Under the pieces are notes generated by a model, which was given only the letters and a program-made list of their open reading frames with translations, did no database searches and was not told the origin of the DNA. A program made the translations under genes and the position numbers. A stretch of 64,000 nt of DNA, from the NCBI RefSeq assembly GCF_003018255.1, contig NZ_CP027440.1; one strand, 5' to 3'. This document shows, in pieces, positions 22,486 through 54,194 of this stretch; within the stretch, counting starts at the first letter, position 1, and each line of letters starts with the position of its first letter. This DNA comes from Escherichia coli. GTDB taxonomy: Bacteria; Pseudomonadota; Gammaproteobacteria; Enterobacterales; Enterobacteriaceae.

Positions 22486-22805
22486 CAATCATTCTCCTTT
22501 GGCGAAACCGAATAAAACGGTATTCAAGTATCAGAAAACCTTAGTTCAGGATCGCACTAGCTGCATGATCGAAATCTCATTCTGCGAACGGTCAGGCATT
22601 TTAGAAAAGGGAATTAAAGGGATAAATAACGTCGAAATAGAGTGATCAAATAACGTCTGTTTGTTAGCCAGCCAGCGGCGTTGGGTTCGCGATTAGCGCC
22701 GAAAAAATCATCATGATTTGGTAAAAAATATAACAGGTAGTTAAAAATCATCCGTGCAGAGTAAATAGCCGGATGGCATCAGAACGATGCCATCCGAACG
22801 GTGGT

Positions 22806-24224
22806 TTAACCCTGACGGCTGAAACGTTGCGTTTTAACGTCCAGCGTTAGCGTTTCTTCTGGTTGTATCGCATACAGTTTCTCACCCTGCTGGCAAATCC
22901 AGCCAATCCCCAGTTCACGGGCGATCAGGGCGCTGTGGGATAGCGGACTTCCGGCGCTAAGGCAGATACCTTTTACAACCGCCGGATCCAGTTGCAGTAT
23001 TGTGGAGGGATAGATGTTCTCCGCCAGTAGAATAGTTGGCGAGTTAAACTGCGGGAGTTCTTCTTTCGTTTGGGTCAGGTGGACCAGGGTGCGATGCAGA
23101 AGATCGTCCACATCAATATAGCGAGCCTGTAGATATTCATCATCCAGTTGCTGGTATTGCTGGCTAAGTTCTTTAAGAACTTGCTGCCAGGCATATTCTG
23201 CCGTGCAATGTTCATGCTGAAGGAGTTCGCTTGCCGCCGCCAGCAGTTCCGGATCATCTAACAGTGTATGGTGACCAGAAAAGATTGCGGCAATATCGTC
23301 AAGCCCGCTGGCTTCTGCTTTCGCTGTTAACGTCATCAGATCTAATAACGTGAAGTCAATGGCCTGGCGTAATCGTTCTTGTTCTTCATCCACGGTCAGG
23401 GTTGATTTTGCCTGTACCGTACATAAAACCGGTTGATAATAAAAGGCTTTACCCGAAACAGGCGGAACGGGACGCAGAATAGGTGGAGCAACTTCCTCCG
23501 TTTCACCAAAGTTATCTTCAGCCAGCTGACGGAAAGCGATCAGTGCCTCTTCAGCTTCTGGCCCTTTCGCAATCAGGCGCAGCGTATCGTTATAGCGAAC
23601 TTGTAGTAACGCAATCTGGTTAATACTCTCCGGTGTGACGCATTTGCCGTTTTTCTCCAGCAACATATCGGCATTAAATGTCGATAAGGTATAAACCAGC
23701 CGGGAGGCCGGACGTACATGCAGGCCGTTACGGTTTTTTATGACCACCGCCAGAGAACGGGCTTCTTCATCGTACGAAGGACATGTGTCAGAGATTTCAG
23801 TGTTGGAGGAGGGTAAACCCAGTTGTTCACGTTTGGCTTCCAGCGCATGCATGGCGTCAAAGATCACTTTGTCGATCTCCGCCCCCGAGGCCGCGCTAAC
23901 CGTTGCTGCCAGTGTACCTTCGACCAACGGCGCAGCACACAAACGTACTTTTGCGGCGATCTCGGGAGCCAGCAATTCCAGCGCAGTTTCAGCACTCAAT
24001 AATGCGCTTCCTATATCCATCATGACCAGCACATGGTCGGTATCGGCAACAGATTCGATGGCCTCCATCACTTTGACGGCATCGGTACCAATGGGATTTT
24101 GTGGATCGTCAATTCCCGCGGCAATGGCGATTTTACAATTATCACTCATTAACATCTGACGGGCTAATTCACCGACGCCTTCTCCCAGTCGGCTGCTATG
24201 TGAAACTATGACCAGGTTTACCAT
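22806..24224 (-). CDS. dhaM: DhaM, dihydroxyacetone kinase phosphotransfer subunit
   Basis: 472-aa multidomain protein MVNLVIVSHSSRLGEGV... recognised as DhaM (EIIA-Man-like, HPr-like and EI-like domains). Confidence 0.9.
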   Translation of the reverse strand: MVNLVIVSHSSRLGEGVGELARQMLMSDNCKIAIAAGIDDPQNPIGTDAVKVMEAIESVADTDHVLVMMDIGSALLSAETALELLAPEIAAKVRLCAAPLVEGTLAATVSAASGAEIDKVIFDAMHALEAKREQLGLPSSNTEISDTCPSYDEEARSLAVVIKNRNGLHVRPASRLVYTLSTFNADMLLEKNGKCVTPESINQIALLQVRYNDTLRLIAKGPEAEEALIAFRQLAEDNFGETEEVAPPILRPVPPVSGKAFYYQPVLCTVQAKSTLTVDEEQERLRQAIDFTLLDLMTLTAKAEASGLDDIAAIFSGHHTLLDDPELLAAASELLQHEHCTAEYAWQQVLKELSQQYQQLDDEYLQARYIDVDDLLHRTLVHLTQTKEELPQFNSPTILLAENIYPSTILQLDPAVVKGICLSAGSPLSHSALIARELGIGWICQQGEKLYAIQPEETLTLDVKTQRFSRQG

Positions 24225-24234
24225 CACCAATTCC

Positions 24235-24867
24235 TTACTCTTTTGCGGCTAACGCCAACATTTGCATCATAAACATCACCGAGGTCGCACCGGGGTCCTG
24301 GTGACCAATACTGCGTTCACCGAGATAACTGGCACGGCCTTTGCGAGCTTGCATCGTAATCGTACTTTGTGCAGCGGATTCGGCGACGCTACTGGCAGCT
24401 TCGAGCGCCGCCGGAATAGAGAGATTTTGCTCGCTGGACTGACGTAACGATTCCACCACCGGCACCCACACATCACACATGGTTTTATCGCCAGGTTCGG
24501 CTTTCCCGCGACTGATTACGCCGTCCGCGCCATCGCGGAACATCTGATAAAGCTCTTCCAGCGTCAGGCTTTGCCGTGCCTGGGTCGCCTGTGCGGCGCG
24601 GATAAAGAAGGTACCGAAAAGCGGACCACTGGCACCACCGACGCTGGAAAGTAGCGTCATACCGGTATTCTTGAGAATGAAACCGATATCTTTATCTGCG
24701 ATAGCAGGGAGTTTTTCCACCACTTTGCTAAAGCCTCGGTTCATATTTAGCCCGTGGTCAGCGTCGCCAATTTCGCGATCCAGTCCGGTAAGATACTCGC
24801 TCTCGGTGCTGAAAATATCGCCACAACGAGTGAGCCAGTTAACAATTTGAGTTCTGCTCAGTGACAT
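24235..24867 (-). CDS. dhaL: DhaL, dihydroxyacetone kinase ADP-binding subunit
   Basis: 210 aa from MSLSRTQIVNWL; the track ORF carries a 26-codon N-terminal extension. Confidence 0.9.
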   Translation of the reverse strand: MSLSRTQIVNWLTRCGDIFSTESEYLTGLDREIGDADHGLNMNRGFSKVVEKLPAIADKDIGFILKNTGMTLLSSVGGASGPLFGTFFIRAAQATQARQSLTLEELYQMFRDGADGVISRGKAEPGDKTMCDVWVPVVESLRQSSEQNLSIPAALEAASSVAESAAQSTITMQARKGRASYLGERSIGHQDPGATSVMFMMQMLALAAKE

Positions 24868-24877
24868 TGCTATCTCC

Positions 24878-25948
24878 TTATTTACCCCAGTTAAGGGCCG
24901 GGGTGTGGACCGGGGCGTCCCAGAGTGCCAGCGTTTCGTCATCAACTTTCAGTAAGGTGATTGAGAAACCGGTCATATCCAGTGAGGTGCAGTACGCGCC
25001 AATTAAATTACGCTCGATAGTCAATCCCGCTTGCTGGCAACGTGTGGTCAGGCGGTTATAGACGCCGTACAGCTCAGAAAGCGGAGTTGCGCCAAGATTG
25101 TTAACCAGCGCAATCAACCGATCGCCAGACTGGAGCGGTTGTTTAGTTTGTGATTCTTCCTGCCAACTGCCTTGTTGATAATCCCAGAAACGCAAAGTGC
25201 GATGGTATGAGCCATTTTCCAGCAGGGTGTCGAACATTTCATCGACGGTTTGATCAAGGGAAGAGAAGGGACGGCGGTCAATACCTGGCTCACCATGAAT
25301 GCCGACGCCAAACTCCATCTCATTGTCCGCCAGGGTAAAAGAAGGTTTGCCCGCGGCAGGAACGGTACAGGCACCGAGAGCGATACCTATTGAGTGGCCT
25401 TGATTATTCAACTTACGCCCCAGTTCCGCACAGGCGTCCAGTGAGTCGCCACGCTCGGCCGCTGCGCCTACGAGTTTTTCAATTAATACGGTGTTGGCAA
25501 CGCCGCGTCGCCCGGCGGTATAAAGACTGTCTTTTACCGCAACGTCGTCATCAATGACCACAGTGGTCACTTTTACGCCGCTATCGTGCAGTAACTCGGT
25601 CGCTGTTTCAAAGTTAAGAATATCGCCGGTGTAATTTTTGATAATCAACAGTACACCTTCGCCGCCATCAATTTGCATGGCGCATTCAAAGATTTTATCG
25701 GGCGTCGGTGAGGTGAAAATTTCGCCCGGACAGGCCCCCGAAAGCATCCCCTGACCGATATAACCACAATGCATCGGCTCGTGTCCGCTGCCGCCACCCG
25801 ACAGCAGGGCGACTTTACCTGCAACGGGGGCATCAGATCGGGTGACATACACCGGATCCTGGTGCAGTGTCAGAGATGGATGCGCTTTCGCTAGTCCTGC
25901 CAGTTGTTCGTCCAGTACGTCTTGCACATCATTGATCAATTTTTTCAT
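24878..25948 (-). CDS. dhaK: DhaK, dihydroxyacetone kinase substrate-binding subunit
   Basis: 356 aa from MKKLINDVQDVLDEQL; Dak1 domain. Confidence 0.9.
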   Translation of the reverse strand: MKKLINDVQDVLDEQLAGLAKAHPSLTLHQDPVYVTRSDAPVAGKVALLSGGGSGHEPMHCGYIGQGMLSGACPGEIFTSPTPDKIFECAMQIDGGEGVLLIIKNYTGDILNFETATELLHDSGVKVTTVVIDDDVAVKDSLYTAGRRGVANTVLIEKLVGAAAERGDSLDACAELGRKLNNQGHSIGIALGACTVPAAGKPSFTLADNEMEFGVGIHGEPGIDRRPFSSLDQTVDEMFDTLLENGSYHRTLRFWDYQQGSWQEESQTKQPLQSGDRLIALVNNLGATPLSELYGVYNRLTTRCQQAGLTIERNLIGAYCTSLDMTGFSITLLKVDDETLALWDAPVHTPALNWGK

Positions 25949-26063
25949 TATTTTGCTCCAGCAATTACGGTAGGGCATGGATGATGTTCAACGACACGGC
26001 GACCACTGACTGCCGATGAATCCATTGTGCATCAGGCAAGGGAAAAGAAAATTAGCCCAAATT

Positions 26064-26082
26064 ATGTTTCATAGTGAAACAT
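26064..26082. promoter_or_regulatory. Perfect palindrome in the dhaK-dhaR divergent region (candidate DhaR operator)
   Basis: ATGTTTCA-TAG-TGAAACAT, a 19-bp perfect inverted repeat upstream of dhaK; a related half-site repeat GTTCCATATTGAAAC follows. Confidence 0.5.
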
Positions 26083-26175
26083 ATTCTTTAATGAATGTTC
26101 CATATTGAAACTTTTACGTGTATTAATACTTAAAATTGCGAGCCGGAACACCTTTTGTCATAAGGGATGCGGGAT

Positions 26176-28095
26176 ATGAGTAGCGCTTTTAACAACGATG
26201 GTCGGGACATATCTCCCTTAATTGCAACCTCCTGGGAGCGATGCATTAAGCTGATGAAACGGGATACATGGAACGTACCACACCAGGCCCAGGGCGTGAC
26301 ATTTGCGTCTATTTATCGGCGTAAGAAAGCGATGCTGACGCTCGGGCAGGCTGCGCTGGAAGATGCCTGGGAATATATGGCACCGCGAGCGTGTGCGCTG
26401 CTTATCCTCGATGAAACCGCCTGCATTCTCAGCCGTAATGGCGATCCGCAAACCTTGCAGCAACTAAGTGCACTGGGATTCAATGACGGCACGTATTGCG
26501 CCGAGGGAATTATTGGTACTTGTGCGCTATCGTTAGCGGCTATCTCTGGTCAGGCCGTGAAAACGATGGCCGATCAACATTTCAAACAGGCACTCTGGAA
26601 CTGGGCCTTTTGTGCAACGCCGTTGTTTGACAGCAAGGGCCGATTGACGGGAACAATAGCGCTGGCGTGTCCGGTTGAGCAAACTACCGCAGCTGATTTG
26701 CCGTTGACGTTGGCAATCGCACGCGAGGTCGGAAATTTACTGCTGACGGACAGTTTGCTCGCTGAAACTAACCGTCATTTAAATCAACTTAATGCCCTGT
26801 TAGAAAGTATGGATGATGGCGTGATTAGCTGGGACGAGCAGGGTAATTTGCAATTTATTAATGCCCAGGCGGCGCGGGTCTTACGCCTTGACGCGACGGC
26901 AAGTCAGGGACGGGCAATCACTGAACTCTTAACGTTACCCGCCGTATTGCAACAAGCAATAAAACAGGCACATCCGCTCAAACACGTAGAAGCAACCTTT
27001 GAAAGCCAGCACCAGTTTATTGATGCGGTGATAACCCTTAAACCGATAATAGAAACGCAGGGAACCAGCTTTATTTTGTTGCTCCATCCTGTGGAACAGA
27101 TGCGGCAGTTAATGACCAGTCAATTAGGAAAAGTCAGCCATACTTTCGCTCATATGCCACAAGAGGATCCGCAAACCCGCCGTTTGATTCATTTTGGTCG
27201 CCAGGCGGCGCGCAGTAGCTTTCCTGTCCTGCTTTGTGGAGAAGAGGGCGTGGGCAAGGCACTGCTAAGTCAGGCAATTCATAATGAAAGTGAGCGTGCA
27301 GCAGGGCCTTATATCGCCGTCAATTGTGAGTTATATGGTGATGCGGCGCTGGCGGAAGAATTTATTGGCGGCGATCGCACGGACAATGAAAATGGTCGTT
27401 TGAGTCGACTGGAACTGGCGCACGGCGGCACGCTGTTTCTTGAAAAGATTGAATATCTGGCGGTGGAGTTACAGTCTGCTTTGCTTCAGGTTATCAAGCA
27501 GGGTGTTATCACGCGACTGGATGCGCGGCGTTTAATACCCATTGATGTCAAAGTGATTGCCACAACGACCGCGGACCTGGCAATGCTGGTGGAACAAAAT
27601 CGTTTTAGTCGCCAGCTGTATTACGCGCTGCATGCATTTGAAATTACCATCCCGCCTCTGCGTATGCGGCGTGGCAGCATTCCGGCGCTGGTGAATAACA
27701 AATTACACAGTCTTGAAAAACGCTTCTCTACGCGGCTGAAAATTGATGACGATGCCCTCGCTCGCCTGGTTTCCTGTGCATGGCCTGGCAACGATTTTGA
27801 ACTTTACAGCGTCATCGAGAATCTTGCTCTGAGTAGTGATAACGGGCGCATTCGCGTCAGTGATTTACCTGAACATCTCTTTACCGAGCAGGCGACAGAT
27901 GATGTCAGCGCCACTCGCCTTTCCACCAGTCTGTCATTTGCGGAAGTTGAAAAAGAGGCAATTATTAACGCAGCCCAGGTCACAGGCGGTCGCATTCAGG
28001 AAATGTCGGCTTTACTTGGAATCGGCCGCACTACGCTGTGGCGGAAAATGAAGCAACATGGCATTGATGCAGGGCAGTTTAAGCGCCGTGGATAG
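26176..28095 (+). CDS. dhaR: DhaR, sigma-54-type AAA+ transcriptional activator of dhaKLM
   Basis: 639-aa ORF with GAF/PAS N-terminal region, an AAA+ core with a degenerate Walker A (GEEGVGKAL, Thr replaced by Ala) and a C-terminal Fis-type HTH; divergent from dhaK. Confidence 0.9.
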   Translation: MSSAFNNDGRDISPLIATSWERCIKLMKRDTWNVPHQAQGVTFASIYRRKKAMLTLGQAALEDAWEYMAPRACALLILDETACILSRNGDPQTLQQLSALGFNDGTYCAEGIIGTCALSLAAISGQAVKTMADQHFKQALWNWAFCATPLFDSKGRLTGTIALACPVEQTTAADLPLTLAIAREVGNLLLTDSLLAETNRHLNQLNALLESMDDGVISWDEQGNLQFINAQAARVLRLDATASQGRAITELLTLPAVLQQAIKQAHPLKHVEATFESQHQFIDAVITLKPIIETQGTSFILLLHPVEQMRQLMTSQLGKVSHTFAHMPQEDPQTRRLIHFGRQAARSSFPVLLCGEEGVGKALLSQAIHNESERAAGPYIAVNCELYGDAALAEEFIGGDRTDNENGRLSRLELAHGGTLFLEKIEYLAVELQSALLQVIKQGVITRLDARRLIPIDVKVIATTTADLAMLVEQNRFSRQLYYALHAFEITIPPLRMRRGSIPALVNNKLHSLEKRFSTRLKIDDDALARLVSCAWPGNDFELYSVIENLALSSDNGRIRVSDLPEHLFTEQATDDVSATRLSTSLSFAEVEKEAIINAAQVTGGRIQEMSALLGIGRTTLWRKMKQHGIDAGQFKRRG

Positions 28096-28131
28096 CGGGA
28101 GAGTATGTACTTTCCCGCTATGAATTGCTAA

Positions 28132-28308
28132 TTAATAGCGACCATGACTGCCGTGATTTGGTCCACCATTTGAAGGTGGCATTGGCTTACCGGAGGGCGC
28201 AGGACCACGAGGGCCATCGCTGTGGCGGTGATGATGGTGGGGAACACAAGCACTTAACAGGCTCGCAAAGACAATTGCTAACAGGCTGAAGGTAAATGTT
28301 TTTTTCAT
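28132..28308 (-). CDS. Small putative lipoprotein, His/Pro/Gly-rich (58 aa)
   Basis: MKKTFTFSLLAIVFASLLSAC with an LSAC lipobox, then CVPHHHHRHSDGPRGPAPSGKPMPPSNGGPNHGSHGRY; sits in the dhaR-ychF gap where I recall ycgV in K-12. Confidence 0.4.
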   Translation of the reverse strand: MKKTFTFSLLAIVFASLLSACVPHHHHRHSDGPRGPAPSGKPMPPSNGGPNHGSHGRY

Positions 28309-28498
28309 GACAAACTCTTGAACGGTTAATGCACTGTGATTGTTATCACATAAAAGGCACATTGTTAATATTGCCAGGAGTCTGATTATGATTTTCGATA
28401 ACTCAGAATTGAAAGAAGCCGCGTAGCAGGCGTAAAAAAGCCATTATGTGCGACTCACATAATGGCTCATTATTAACCGTCAGGGTATTACGTGGAAT

Positions 28499-50450: not shown

Positions 50451-53400
50451 ATGAGTAAATTCCTGGACCGGTTTCGCTACTTCAAACAGAAGGGTGAAAC
50501 CTTTGCCGATGGGCATGGCCAGCTTCTCAATACCAACCGTGACTGGGAGGATGGATATCGCCAGCGTTGGCAGCATGACAAAATCGTCCGCTCTACCCAC
50601 GGGGTAAACTGCACCGGCTCCTGCAGCTGGAAAATCTACGTCAAAAACGGTCTGGTGACCTGGGAAACCCAGCAGACTGACTATCCGCGTACTCGCCCGG
50701 ACCTGCCAAACCATGAACCTCGCGGCTGCCCGCGCGGTGCCAGCTACTCCTGGTATCTTTACAGCGCCAACCGCCTGAAATACCCAATGATGCGCAAACG
50801 CCTGATGAAAATGTGGCGTGAAGCGAAGGCGCTGCATAGCGATCCGGTTGAGGCATGGGCTTCTATCATTGAAGACGCCGATAAAGCGAAAAGCTTTAAG
50901 CAGGCGCGTGGACGCGGTGGTTTTGTTCGTTCTTCCTGGCAGGAAGTGAATGAACTGATCGCCGCCTCTAACGTTTACACCATCAAAAACTACGGCCCGG
51001 ACCGCGTCGCTGGCTTCTCGCCAATTCCGGCAATGTCGATGGTTTCTTACGCATCGGGTGCACGCTATCTTTCGCTGATTGGCGGTACTTGCTTAAGCTT
51101 CTACGACTGGTACTGCGACCTGCCTCCTGCGTCTCCGCAAACCTGGGGCGAGCAAACTGACGTACCGGAATCTGCTGACTGGTACAACTCCAGCTACATC
51201 ATCGCCTGGGGTTCAAACGTGCCGCAGACGCGTACCCCGGATGCTCACTTCTTTACTGAAGTGCGTTACAAAGGCACCAAAACTGTTGCCGTCACACCAG
51301 ACTACGCTGAAATCGCCAAACTGTGCGATCTGTGGCTGGCACCGAAACAGGGCACCGATGCGGCAATGGCGCTGGCGATGGGCCACGTAATGCTGCGTGA
51401 ATTCCACCTCGACAACCCAAGCCAGTATTTCACCGACTATGTGCGCCGCTACACCGACATGCCGATGCTGGTGATGCTGGAAGAGCGCGACGGTTACTAC
51501 GCTGCGGGTCGTATGCTGCGCGCTGCTGATCTGGTGGATGCGCTGGGCCAGGAAAACAATCCGGAATGGAAAACTGTCGCCTTTAATACCAATGGCGAAA
51601 TGGTTGCGCCGAACGGTTCTATTGGCTTCCGCTGGGGCGAGAAGGGCAAATGGAATCTTGAGCAGCGCGACGGCAAAACTGGCGAAGAAACCGAGCTGCA
51701 ACTGAGCCTGCTGGGTAGCCAGGATGAGATCGCTGAGGTGGGCTTCCCGTACTTTGGTGGCGATGGCACGGAACACTTCAACAAAGTGGAACTGGAAAAC
51801 GTGCTGCTGCATAAGCTGCCGGTGAAACGCCTGCAACTGGCTGATGGCAGCACCGCCCTGGTGACCACCGTTTATGATCTGACGCTGGCAAACTACGGTC
51901 TGGAACGTGGCCTGAACGACGTTAACTGTGCAACCAGCTATGACGATGTGAAAGCTTACACCCCTGCCTGGGCAGAGCAGATTACCGGCGTTTCTCGCAG
52001 CCAGATTATTCGCATCGCCCGTGAATTTGCCGATAACGCTGATAAAACGCACGGTCGTTCGATGATTATCGTCGGCGCTGGGCTGAACCACTGGTATCAC
52101 CTGGACATGAACTATCGTGGTCTGATCAACATGCTGATTTTCTGCGGTTGTGTCGGTCAGAGCGGGGGCGGCTGGGCGCACTATGTAGGTCAGGAAAAAC
52201 TGCGTCCGCAAACCGGCTGGCAGCCGCTGGCGTTTGCCCTCGACTGGCAGCGTCCGGCGCGTCACATGAACAGTACCTCTTATTTCTATAACCACTCCAG
52301 CCAGTGGCGTTATGAAACCGTGACTGCGGAAGAACTGCTGTCGCCGATGGCGGATAAATCTCGCTATACCGGACACTTGATCGACTTTAACGTCCGTGCA
52401 GAACGCATGGGCTGGCTGCCGTCTGCGCCGCAGTTAGGCACTAACCCGCTGACTATCGCTCGCGAAGCAGAAAAAGCCGGGATGAATCCGGTGGACTATA
52501 CGGTGAAATCCCTGAAAGAGGGTTCTATCCGTTTCGCTGCGGAACAGCCGGAAAACGGTAAAAACCACCCGCGTAATCTGTTCATCTGGCGTTCTAACCT
52601 GCTCGGTTCTTCCGGTAAAGGTCATGAGTTTATGCTCAAGTACCTGCTGGGGACGGAGCACGGTATCCAGGGCAAAGACCTGGGGCAGCAGGGCGGCGTG
52701 AAGCCGGAAGAAGTGGACTGGCAGGACAACGGTCTGGAAGGCAAGCTGGATCTGGTGGTGACGCTGGACTTCCGTCTGTCGAGCACCTGTCTCTATTCCG
52801 ACATCATTTTGCCGACGGCGACCTGGTACGAAAAAGACGATATGAATACTTCGGATATGCATCCGTTTATTCACCCGCTGTCTGCGGCGGTCGATCCGGC
52901 CTGGGAAGCGAAAAGCGACTGGGAAATCTACAAAGCCATCGCGAAGAAATTCTCCGAAGTGTGCGTTGGTCATCTGGGTAAAGAAACTGACATCGTCACG
53001 CTGCCTATCCAGCACGACTCTGCCGCTGAACTGGCGCAACCGCTGGATGTGAAAGACTGGAAAAAAGGCGAATGCGACCTGATCCCAGGTAAAACTGCAC
53101 CGCACATTATGGTCGTAGAGCGCGATTATCCAGCAACTTACGAACGCTTTACCTCTATCGGCCCGCTGATGGAGAAAATCGGTAACGGCGGTAAAGGGAT
53201 TGCCTGGAACACCCAGAGCGAGATGGATCTGCTGCGTAAGCTCAACTACACCAAAGCGGAAGGTCCGGCAAAAGGCCAGCCGATGCTCAATACCGCAATT
53301 GATGCGGCAGAGATGATCCTGACGCTGGCACCGGAAACCAATGGTCAGGTAGCTGTAAAAGCCTGGGCTGCCCTGAGCGAGTTTACCGGCCGTGACCATA

Positions 53401-54194
53401 CGCATCTGGCGCTGAATAAAGAAGACGAGAAGATTCGCTTCCGCGATATTCAGGCACAGCCGCGCAAAATCATCTCCAGCCCGACATGGTCTGGCCTTGA
53501 AGATGAACACGTTTCTTACAACGCCGGTTACACCAACGTTCACGAGCTGATCCCGTGGCGTACGCTCTCTGGCCGTCAGCAGCTGTATCAGGATCACCAA
53601 TGGATGCGTGATTTCGGTGAAAGCCTGCTGGTTTATCGTCCGCCGATCGACACCCGTTCGGTGAAAGAAGTGATGGGCCAGAAATCCAATGGCAACCCGG
53701 AAAAAGCGCTCAACTTCCTGACGCCACACCAGAAGTGGGGTATCCACTCCACCTACAGCGACAACCTGCTGATGCTGACTTTAGGTCGCGGTGGTCCGGT
53801 GGTCTGGCTGAGTGAAGCCGATGCCAAAGAGCTGGGTATCGCCGATAACGACTGGATTGAAGTCTTCAACAGCAACGGTGCACTGACTGCCCGTGCGGTT
53901 GTCAGCCAGCGTGTTCCGGCAGGGATGACCATGATGTACCACGCGCAGGAACGTATCGTTAACCTGCCTGGTTCGGAAATTACCCAACAGCGTGGTGGTA
54001 TCCATAACTCGGTCACCCGTATCACGCCGAAACCGACGCATATGATCGGCGGCTATGCCCATCTGGCATATGGCTTTAACTACTACGGCACCGTAGGTTC
54101 TAACCGCGATGAGTTTGTTGTAGTGCGTAAGATGAAGAACATTGACTGGTTAGATGGCGAAGGCAATGACCAGGTACAGGAGAGCGTAAAATGA
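50451..54194 (+). CDS. narG: Respiratory nitrate reductase A, alpha subunit
   Basis: 1247-aa ORF MSKFLDRFRYFKQKGETFADGHGQ with the N-terminal Fe-S motif region (HGVNCTGSCSW). Confidence 0.97.
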   Translation: MSKFLDRFRYFKQKGETFADGHGQLLNTNRDWEDGYRQRWQHDKIVRSTHGVNCTGSCSWKIYVKNGLVTWETQQTDYPRTRPDLPNHEPRGCPRGASYSWYLYSANRLKYPMMRKRLMKMWREAKALHSDPVEAWASIIEDADKAKSFKQARGRGGFVRSSWQEVNELIAASNVYTIKNYGPDRVAGFSPIPAMSMVSYASGARYLSLIGGTCLSFYDWYCDLPPASPQTWGEQTDVPESADWYNSSYIIAWGSNVPQTRTPDAHFFTEVRYKGTKTVAVTPDYAEIAKLCDLWLAPKQGTDAAMALAMGHVMLREFHLDNPSQYFTDYVRRYTDMPMLVMLEERDGYYAAGRMLRAADLVDALGQENNPEWKTVAFNTNGEMVAPNGSIGFRWGEKGKWNLEQRDGKTGEETELQLSLLGSQDEIAEVGFPYFGGDGTEHFNKVELENVLLHKLPVKRLQLADGSTALVTTVYDLTLANYGLERGLNDVNCATSYDDVKAYTPAWAEQITGVSRSQIIRIAREFADNADKTHGRSMIIVGAGLNHWYHLDMNYRGLINMLIFCGCVGQSGGGWAHYVGQEKLRPQTGWQPLAFALDWQRPARHMNSTSYFYNHSSQWRYETVTAEELLSPMADKSRYTGHLIDFNVRAERMGWLPSAPQLGTNPLTIAREAEKAGMNPVDYTVKSLKEGSIRFAAEQPENGKNHPRNLFIWRSNLLGSSGKGHEFMLKYLLGTEHGIQGKDLGQQGGVKPEEVDWQDNGLEGKLDLVVTLDFRLSSTCLYSDIILPTATWYEKDDMNTSDMHPFIHPLSAAVDPAWEAKSDWEIYKAIAKKFSEVCVGHLGKETDIVTLPIQHDSAAELAQPLDVKDWKKGECDLIPGKTAPHIMVVERDYPATYERFTSIGPLMEKIGNGGKGIAWNTQSEMDLLRKLNYTKAEGPAKGQPMLNTAIDAAEMILTLAPETNGQVAVKAWAALSEFTGRDHTHLALNKEDEKIRFRDIQAQPRKIISSPTWSGLEDEHVSYNAGYTNVHELIPWRTLSGRQQLYQDHQWMRDFGESLLVYRPPIDTRSVKEVMGQKSNGNPEKALNFLTPHQKWGIHSTYSDNLLMLTLGRGGPVVWLSEADAKELGIADNDWIEVFNSNGALTARAVVSQRVPAGMTMMYHAQERIVNLPGSEITQQRGGIHNSVTRITPKPTHMIGGYAHLAYGFNYYGTVGSNRDEFVVVRKMKNIDWLDGEGNDQVQESVK

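Follow-up and report, generated by a model that had tools for sequence, protein, structure and literature searches.

Tandem dyads in the dhaK-dhaR control region of Escherichia coli as probable DhaR sites, and their conservation at dha promoters of Enterobacterales

The enhancer of the E. coli promoter glnAp2 consists of two 17-bp dyads about 32 bp apart, which are bound by NtrC (NRI), an AAA+ enhancer-binding protein (EBP) with a Fis-type helix-turn-helix. These sites, of the sequence TGCACC-N5-GGTGCA, serve a sigma-54 (-24/-12) promoter from approximately -108 and -140, and the GAFTGA motif is present in NtrC. TyrR also belongs to the EBP family, with the sigma-54 contact having been lost. 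It both activates and represses sigma-70 promoters from paired dyad boxes (TGTAAA-N6-TTTACA) situated near or over the core promoter elements, and its switching depends on amino acids and ATP.

DhaR has been described as a sigma-70-dependent EBP homolog (PMC3162934) and has been grouped with the TyrR family (PMC8743547, PMC4797297). It controls a sigma-70 promoter, from which it activates dhaKLM, with DhaL and DhaK performing the switching (PMC10084136, PMC3162934), and its RefSeq name is that of a dual regulator. No nucleotide-level DhaR site was found in the accessible full-text literature (a search with the literal sequence included), the primary DhaR study lying outside this body of text, and the supplements of a RegulonDB paper were found to hold no DhaR entry.

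The dhaK-dhaR spacer and its two dyads

The window examined here, meaning the whole stretch of 64,000 nucleotides analysed (E. coli contig NZ_CP027440.1), contains the dihydroxyacetone kinase genes and dhaR. Gene identities were confirmed by NCBIfam for DhaR (1021 bits) and DhaK (519 bits), as well as for DhaL and DhaM, with ychF lying downstream. The dhaK-dhaR spacer is that of E. coli, being present in 5383 of 5426 complete genomes and 100% identical in some strains. Compared to K-12 MG1655 it differs by a single nucleotide at 26085, between two dyads designated K1 and K2, both of which are identical to their K-12 counterparts. The genes and dyads are as follows.

22806-24230, minus strand: dhaM, following dhaK and dhaL (NCBIfam)
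24235-24945, minus strand: dhaL, longest open reading frame, following dhaK (NCBIfam)
24878-25948, minus strand: dhaK, 356 aa, ATG at 25948
26065-26081, no strand assigned: K1, the dhaK-proximal dyad TGTTTCATAGTGAAACA, with core GTTTC-N5-GAAAC at 26066-26080
26096-26112, no strand assigned: K2, the dhaK-distal and dhaR-proximal dyad TGTTCCATATTGAAACT, with core GTTCC-N5-GAAAC at 26097-26111
26176-28095, plus strand: dhaR, 639 aa from the ATG used by RefSeq in K-12, with a second in-frame ATG at 26167

Like the NtrC enhancer, K1 and K2 are tandem dyads about three helical turns apart, on which two dimers may nucleate an oligomer. Unlike it, they are associated with a protein without GAFTGA and with no sigma-54 promoter, their sequence is GTTYC-N5-GRAAC, and their apparent positions relative to a sigma-70-type promoter are about -56 and -87. 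The anatomy looks like that of an NtrC enhancer which has been moved next to the promoter. As a functional analogue of the K1/K2 element, the TyrR regulon appears to be the best, any contact with the polymerase being putative in the case of DhaR. However, the TyrR box differs from the site consensus nGTTYCAwwAYGRAACr in sequence and half-site spacing, and the switch of DhaR is formed by DhaL::ADP and DhaK. A further likeness is to the operator of GlpR, whose regulon is also related to glycerol and whose dyad is likewise AT-rich and built of GTTC/GAAC half-sites. Yet the GTTC-N6-GAAC found at glpD is one base tighter than the GTTY-N7-RAAC seen here, and GlpR is a repressor of the DeoR family.

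The initial annotation had reported a perfect 19-bp palindrome at 26064-26082. The string ATGTTTCATAGTGAAACAT was located there by direct sequence match and at the distances claimed, with its start 116 nt from the ATG of dhaK (25948) and its end 94 nt from that of dhaR (26176). However, it is not a perfect palindrome, as comparison with its own reverse complement gives three mismatches, all at central positions. What the repeat finder identified is an inverted repeat with perfect 9-bp arms, TATGTTTCA (26063-26071) and TGAAACATA (26075-26083), around a non-symmetric 3-nt centre, TAG; the arms measure 8 bp within the 19-mer and 9 bp when the flanking T/A is counted. The second, partial repeat mentioned alongside it is real, with ATGTTCCATATTGAAACTT at 26095-26113 starting 31 bp later in the same register and having three mismatches. 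In K-12 (NC_000913.3) the 19-mer occupies 1250954-1250972 and K1 occupies 1250955-1250971. The centres of K1 and K2 are 31 bp apart, the half-site centres within each dyad are 10 bp apart, and the spacer contains no repeated dyad other than these two.

A single inverted repeat of this type is unremarkable against chance. Shuffled sequences give 0.25 repeats with 9-bp arms per window at a spacer of 3 nt and 2.75 at spacers of 0-10 nt, and the window itself has about 11 distinct examples, the majority being GC-rich, terminator-like hairpins. The pair is a different matter. Allowing up to three mismatches, the 19-mer has three matches in the window against 0.04 expected, which places K1/K2 beyond chance; the main argument is their conservation across genera. 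Besides K1 and K2, the core is matched exactly once more in the window, by GTTTCGCTGCGGAAC at 52531-52545, inside a 1247-aa ORF on the plus strand (50451-54194). It is probably meaningless, as about 0.24 such matches would be expected per window by chance.

Two of the other perfect 9-bp-arm inverted repeats lie at the borders of the locus. The first, CGGATGGCATC...GATGCCATCCG (22770-22796), is found just past the dhaM stop codon, and the second, GCCATTATGTG...CACATAATGGC (28440-28466), is situated between dhaR and the ychF end, with an A-run before it and T-rich sequence after it. The two probably represent terminators on either side of the locus. The gap between dhaR and ychF is 403 bp (28096-28498). 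In K-12 this interval holds the 2.9-kb autotransporter gene ycgV, which is therefore absent from the strain analysed.

Conservation of the dyads across genera

With one genome per species, 80 loci were retrieved by the DhaR-specific N-terminal sensor domain; as all were obtained through DhaR, co-occurrence with it is one-sided, the sample being one of loci which encode DhaR or a DhaR-like protein. In 51 of these, from Enterobacterales, DhaR is at least 68% identical. This set includes Escherichia, Citrobacter, Klebsiella, Raoultella, Pantoea, Kosakonia, Phytobacter, Rahnella, Pluralibacter, Shimwellia and Kluyvera, among others. Of the 51, 48 have a tandem GTTYC-N5-GRAAC pair at 110-200 bp in front of dhaK, with the centres 31 bp apart in 42 loci and 32 bp apart in six. 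Loci in which dhaD (glycerol dehydrogenase) separates dhaK from dhaR have another pair in front of dhaD, about 222 bp from the first. Such additional pairs occur in 30 loci, with a spacing of 32 bp in 29 of them, so that 77 of the 78 pairs on the dhaK and dhaD sides together have their dyads 31-32 bp apart. Loci of the Klebsiella, Citrobacter, Raoultella and Pantoea type consequently hold four dyads rather than two (L007-L049, L077 and L079; representative, L023:1321-1623). E. coli has the dhaK-side pair only; there, dhaR occupies the place which dhaD has in other genera, so that it is the regulator gene towards which the distal site is turned.

The sites have the consensus nGTTYCAwwAYGRAACr. 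In its core, the letters G, TT and C of the left half-site and G, AA and C of the right are invariant among the unique sequences of K1 (n = 41), K2 (n = 44) and the dhaD-side dyad D2 (n = 28), whereas central bases and flanks vary freely. In the remaining class, the dhaD-proximal D1 (21 unique sequences), this invariance extends to the left half-site, the right one being degenerate. Many of the orthologous sites are imperfect palindromes in which the core letters have nevertheless been kept, and this retention of letters rather than mere pairing points to recognition by a protein and not to a nucleic-acid structure.

The motif is also largely confined to dha control regions. With up to two mismatches, TGTTTCANNNTGAAACA has 38 matches in 16.8 kb of regulatory DNA against three in 243 kb elsewhere, and 138 of the 140 exact matches to GTTYC-N5-GRAAC in 345 kb fall within the 24.9 kb of dhaK/dhaD control DNA. 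The DhaR-type motif was not found in the control regions of glpD, glpFK or glpT/glpA, all three of which were searched.

A purely structural role for the repeat, as cruciform, transcript hairpin or terminator, is an extremely remote possibility, as is a functionless inverted repeat due to chance: its perfect 9-bp arms can fold (stem-loop of -6.2 kcal/mol as single-stranded DNA) and the chance frequency is the 0.25-2.75 per window given above, but the fold is weak (z = -1.9, with 6 of 200 shuffles as stable), AT-rich and without a T-run, no terminator was called, the orthologous sites conserve letters rather than only pairing, and the counts of 38 against 3 and of 138 in 140 exclude chance.

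The remaining 29 loci, from Serratia, Yersinia, Hafnia and relatives (L050-L076, L078 and L080), encode a DhaR-like protein which is 50-56% identical. No dha genes were found within 3 kb of the DhaR-like gene in these loci, GTTYC-N5-GRAAC has no match in their 198 kb, and a search for other upstream palindromes found none common to the loci. Their helix-turn-helix, IGRTTLWRKVK, is nearly identical to the IGRTTLWRKMK shared by the DhaR of the window and representative orthologues. The identity of this helix alone is therefore not predictive of the motif. In one of these loci (L059:3001-4872), the upstream neighbour encodes a ferrichrome-type periplasmic binding protein.

Geometry of the dhaK, dhaD and dhaR promoters

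A consensus scan of 25900-26250 for promoters and terminators gave no consensus-grade promoter and no terminator, and a looser hexamer scan returned several weak promoter candidates which could not be ranked from the E. coli sequence alone. A sigma-54 -24/-12 element (TGGCAC-N5-TTGCA) was also sought in the spacer, the best match having three mismatches in 11 positions and lacking the GC of the -12 element. In an alignment of 35 distinct dhaK control regions in the orientation of dhaK, the order is K2, 14 nt, K1, 12-13 nt, the T-rich ATTTTyTTTT, a -10-like hexamer (CACAAT in Escherichia, CAGAAT in Klebsiella), 5 nt and CATCG, and it is only downstream of CATCG that length variation among the regions starts. 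The dhaD side is a mirror image of this, with D2, 15 nt, D1, 13 nt, TTTTTTTG, TACAGT, 5 nt and CATCG. From the end of the proximal dyad to NANAAT there are exactly 35 nt in 42 of the 48 dhaK promoters, and the distance from the end of D1 to TANAGT is likewise exactly 35 nt in 29 of the 30 dhaD promoters. At both promoters CATCG or YATCG lies 5 nt past the -10-like hexamer. The dha control region of Klebsiella and Citrobacter is thus like that of E. coli in motif, tandem spacing and offset to the -10-like hexamer. In the window the corresponding elements are the following.

26043-26052, minus strand: conserved T-rich block ATTTTCTTTT, -35 region of the putative dhaK promoter TTTTCT-16-CACAAT (alignment and hexamer scoring)
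26024-26029, minus strand: CACAAT, -10-like hexamer of the putative DhaR-dependent dhaK promoter, beginning 35 nt past the end of K1 (conserved offset)
26014-26018, minus strand: conserved CATCG, whose A at position 26017 (K-12 1250907) is the predicted dhaK start, with a leader of 69 nt

If the hexamer is read as a -10 element, transcription would start at 26017, which would place K1 near -56 and K2 near -87. The combination of adjacent sites with a poor, T-rich -35 region would be the signature of an activator-dependent sigma-70 promoter at dhaK. In a cryptic Escherichia lineage (L002:2770-2893), a 6-bp duplication, TGGATT, directly follows the -10-like hexamer, and the conserved start region is shifted.

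The geometry can be read in another manner, whereby the dyads are DhaR sites but form a remote, enhancer-like upstream activating sequence (UAS), the true dhaK promoter being the gene-proximal TTGAAC-16-CGTAAT at approximately 25962-25989. K1 and K2 would then be at roughly -114 and -145, in the classical range of EBP-family activators (-100 to -150), and would reach the polymerase by DNA looping, like the sigma-54 ancestors of DhaR. The hexamers of TTGAAC-16-CGTAAT are nearer to consensus than those of TTTTCT-16-CACAAT, the block is conserved in Escherichia and Citrobacter amalonaticus-type loci, and it is listed as a promoter of the sigma-70 holoenzyme in the spacer by Shimada et al. (PMC3946193). 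However, that promoter was defined by genomic SELEX as constitutive, which is to say independent of an activator, and the block is missing from most of the genera which have the dyads. In addition, the 35-nt offset from the dyad to NANAAT or TANAGT is fixed at dhaK and dhaD, with all length variation occurring downstream of it. A remote UAS is therefore unlikely, and the promoter-adjacent arrangement at -56/-87 is preferred.

The 25962-26005 segment of the dhaK leader, GGTCGCCGTGTCGTTGAACATCATCC, is conserved only where dhaK and dhaR are directly divergent (the Escherichia, Citrobacter amalonaticus and C. sedlakii types). Within this segment is TTGAAC, the -35 element of the promoter which Shimada et al. 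predicted as constitutive, and the segment may represent a second, DhaR-independent promoter or a site for another regulator.

On the other side of the spacer, a block reading AAAAT(T)GCGAG is common to the loci in which dhaK and dhaR diverge.

26131-26141, plus strand: conserved block TAAAATTGCGA, 18 nt past K2 (alignment of divergent dhaK/dhaR loci)

Two readings of this block are available. Either TAAAAT (26131-26136) is a -10-like element, in which case K2 would be at about -39 and overlap the -35 region, or TTGCGA (26136-26141) is the -35 element of TTGCGA-17-CATAAG, in which case K2 would be at about -67. The latter is the dhaR promoter predicted by Shimada et al. 2014 (PMC3946193). As to the suggestion in the initial annotation that the palindrome might serve the autoregulation of dhaR, it is the distal dyad K2 that appears to lie on or next to the dhaR promoter, K1, the palindrome itself, not being the site so placed. 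Autorepression of dhaR was reportedly described by Bachler et al. Yet dhaKLM and dhaR were both induced on dihydroxyacetone (DHA) in the work of Peiro et al. (PMC6643234), and for dhaR this does not fit simple autorepression.

DhaR as the binding protein and what the element means

K1 and K2 are most probably tandem DhaR sites in the divergent dhaKLM/dhaR control region. They are positioned between dhaK and dhaR, each is a dyad compatible with a helix-turn-helix dimer, they are conserved together with dhaR and they are specific to dha promoters. The proposal in the initial annotation that the palindrome is the DhaR operator is accordingly supported by this conservation with dhaR orthologues and by the promoter specificity; what needs to be amended is that the palindrome forms one half of a two-site element. 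Taken as a repressor site for dhaKLM the proposal fares less well, as a proximal position of about -56 in the predicted geometry better suits an activator site.

The dyads might instead be occupied by another regulator, the candidates being GlpR, Cra, NtrC, PtrR and the LysR-type YgfI/DhfA, with DhaR binding elsewhere in the spacer. ChIP-exo places YgfI/DhfA and PtrR in the spacer and genomic SELEX places NtrC there, in the case of NtrC and PtrR at spacer resolution only. The half-site TGAAAC resembles that of Cra, and the GTTC/GAAC half-site resembles the GlpR operator at glpD, GTTCGATAACGAAC. Cra sites, however, are single and have their half-sites in the opposite order, and dyads of the GlpR type have N6 rather than N7 spacing. 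For YgfI/DhfA a site has been predicted, as follows.

26018-26033, minus strand: predicted YgfI/DhfA (LysR-type) site GATGCACAATGGATTC, at -92 from the start of dhaK (PMC9068703, Table S1)

This site is 31 bp away from the repeat and has no overlap with the dyads. Furthermore, the motif tracks the two dha promoters only, and the alignment shows no other conserved dyad in the spacer which DhaR could use. Binding of the dyads by another regulator is thus very improbable, and DhaR is retained as the protein concerned. The predicted YgfI/DhfA site itself overlaps the -10-like CACAAT and the predicted dhaK start, which is an odd position for an activator. In a by-eye comparison with consensus sequences, those of CRP, Cra, ArcA, FNR and IHF did not fit the dyads.

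The DhaR encoded in the window has GGDRTDNENG at the position where GAFTGA would be expected, and the representative orthologues inspected have GSAPTDDENG, in agreement with PMC3162934. From these features and the conserved layout we infer a mode of action, including the role of DhaR on the dyads, its stoichiometry, the transcription starts and the mechanism at the dhaR promoter. Each dyad would take one dimer of the C-terminal, Fis-type helix-turn-helix, its half-sites being one helical turn apart. As the dyads are 31 bp apart, or about three helical turns, the two dimers would be on the same face of the DNA, and they may go on to form a larger oligomer, as AAA+ enhancer-binding proteins typically do. 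In the presence of dihydroxyacetone, DhaR would be activated by DhaL::ADP and no longer held by DhaK. The complex at about -56 (K1) and -87 (K2) could then recruit or activate sigma-70 RNA polymerase at the dhaK promoter, with its poor T-rich -35 region and CACAAT as -10. The same bound complex, through K2, would sit on or just upstream of the dhaR promoter, by which means DhaR may control its own gene.

The element is an ordinary part of a well-studied system, the established regulation of dhaKLM and dhaR by DhaR in E. coli K-12, to whose sequence both sites are identical. That the motif extends across genera, that dhaD has a pair of its own and that the -56/-87 geometry appears to be fixed are useful refinements and do not constitute a new kind of element. 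With the two 17-bp dyads, DhaR control of dihydroxyacetone kinase is pinned to specific candidate sites, while nGTTYCAwwAYGRAACr pairs 31-32 bp apart predict dha promoters across Enterobacterales. The motif may be of use for regulon annotation, for biosensors responsive to DHA or glycerol and in the engineering of strains for 1,3-propanediol.

The -56/-87 geometry also gives a modest but concrete handle on transcription activation by an enhancer-binding protein lacking GAFTGA. A bolder and rather doubtful proposal is that the tandem dyads, together with the T-rich surrogate of a -35 element, form at -56/-87 of dhaK and dhaD, across many genera, a dedicated module on which a GAFTGA-less AAA+ EBP assembles beside a sigma-70 promoter and remodels the polymerase, the distal site in E. 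coli setting the dhaR promoter. Should this be true, the dhaK/dhaD promoter pair would be a compact model of a former sigma-54 activator that has been rewired to sigma-70.
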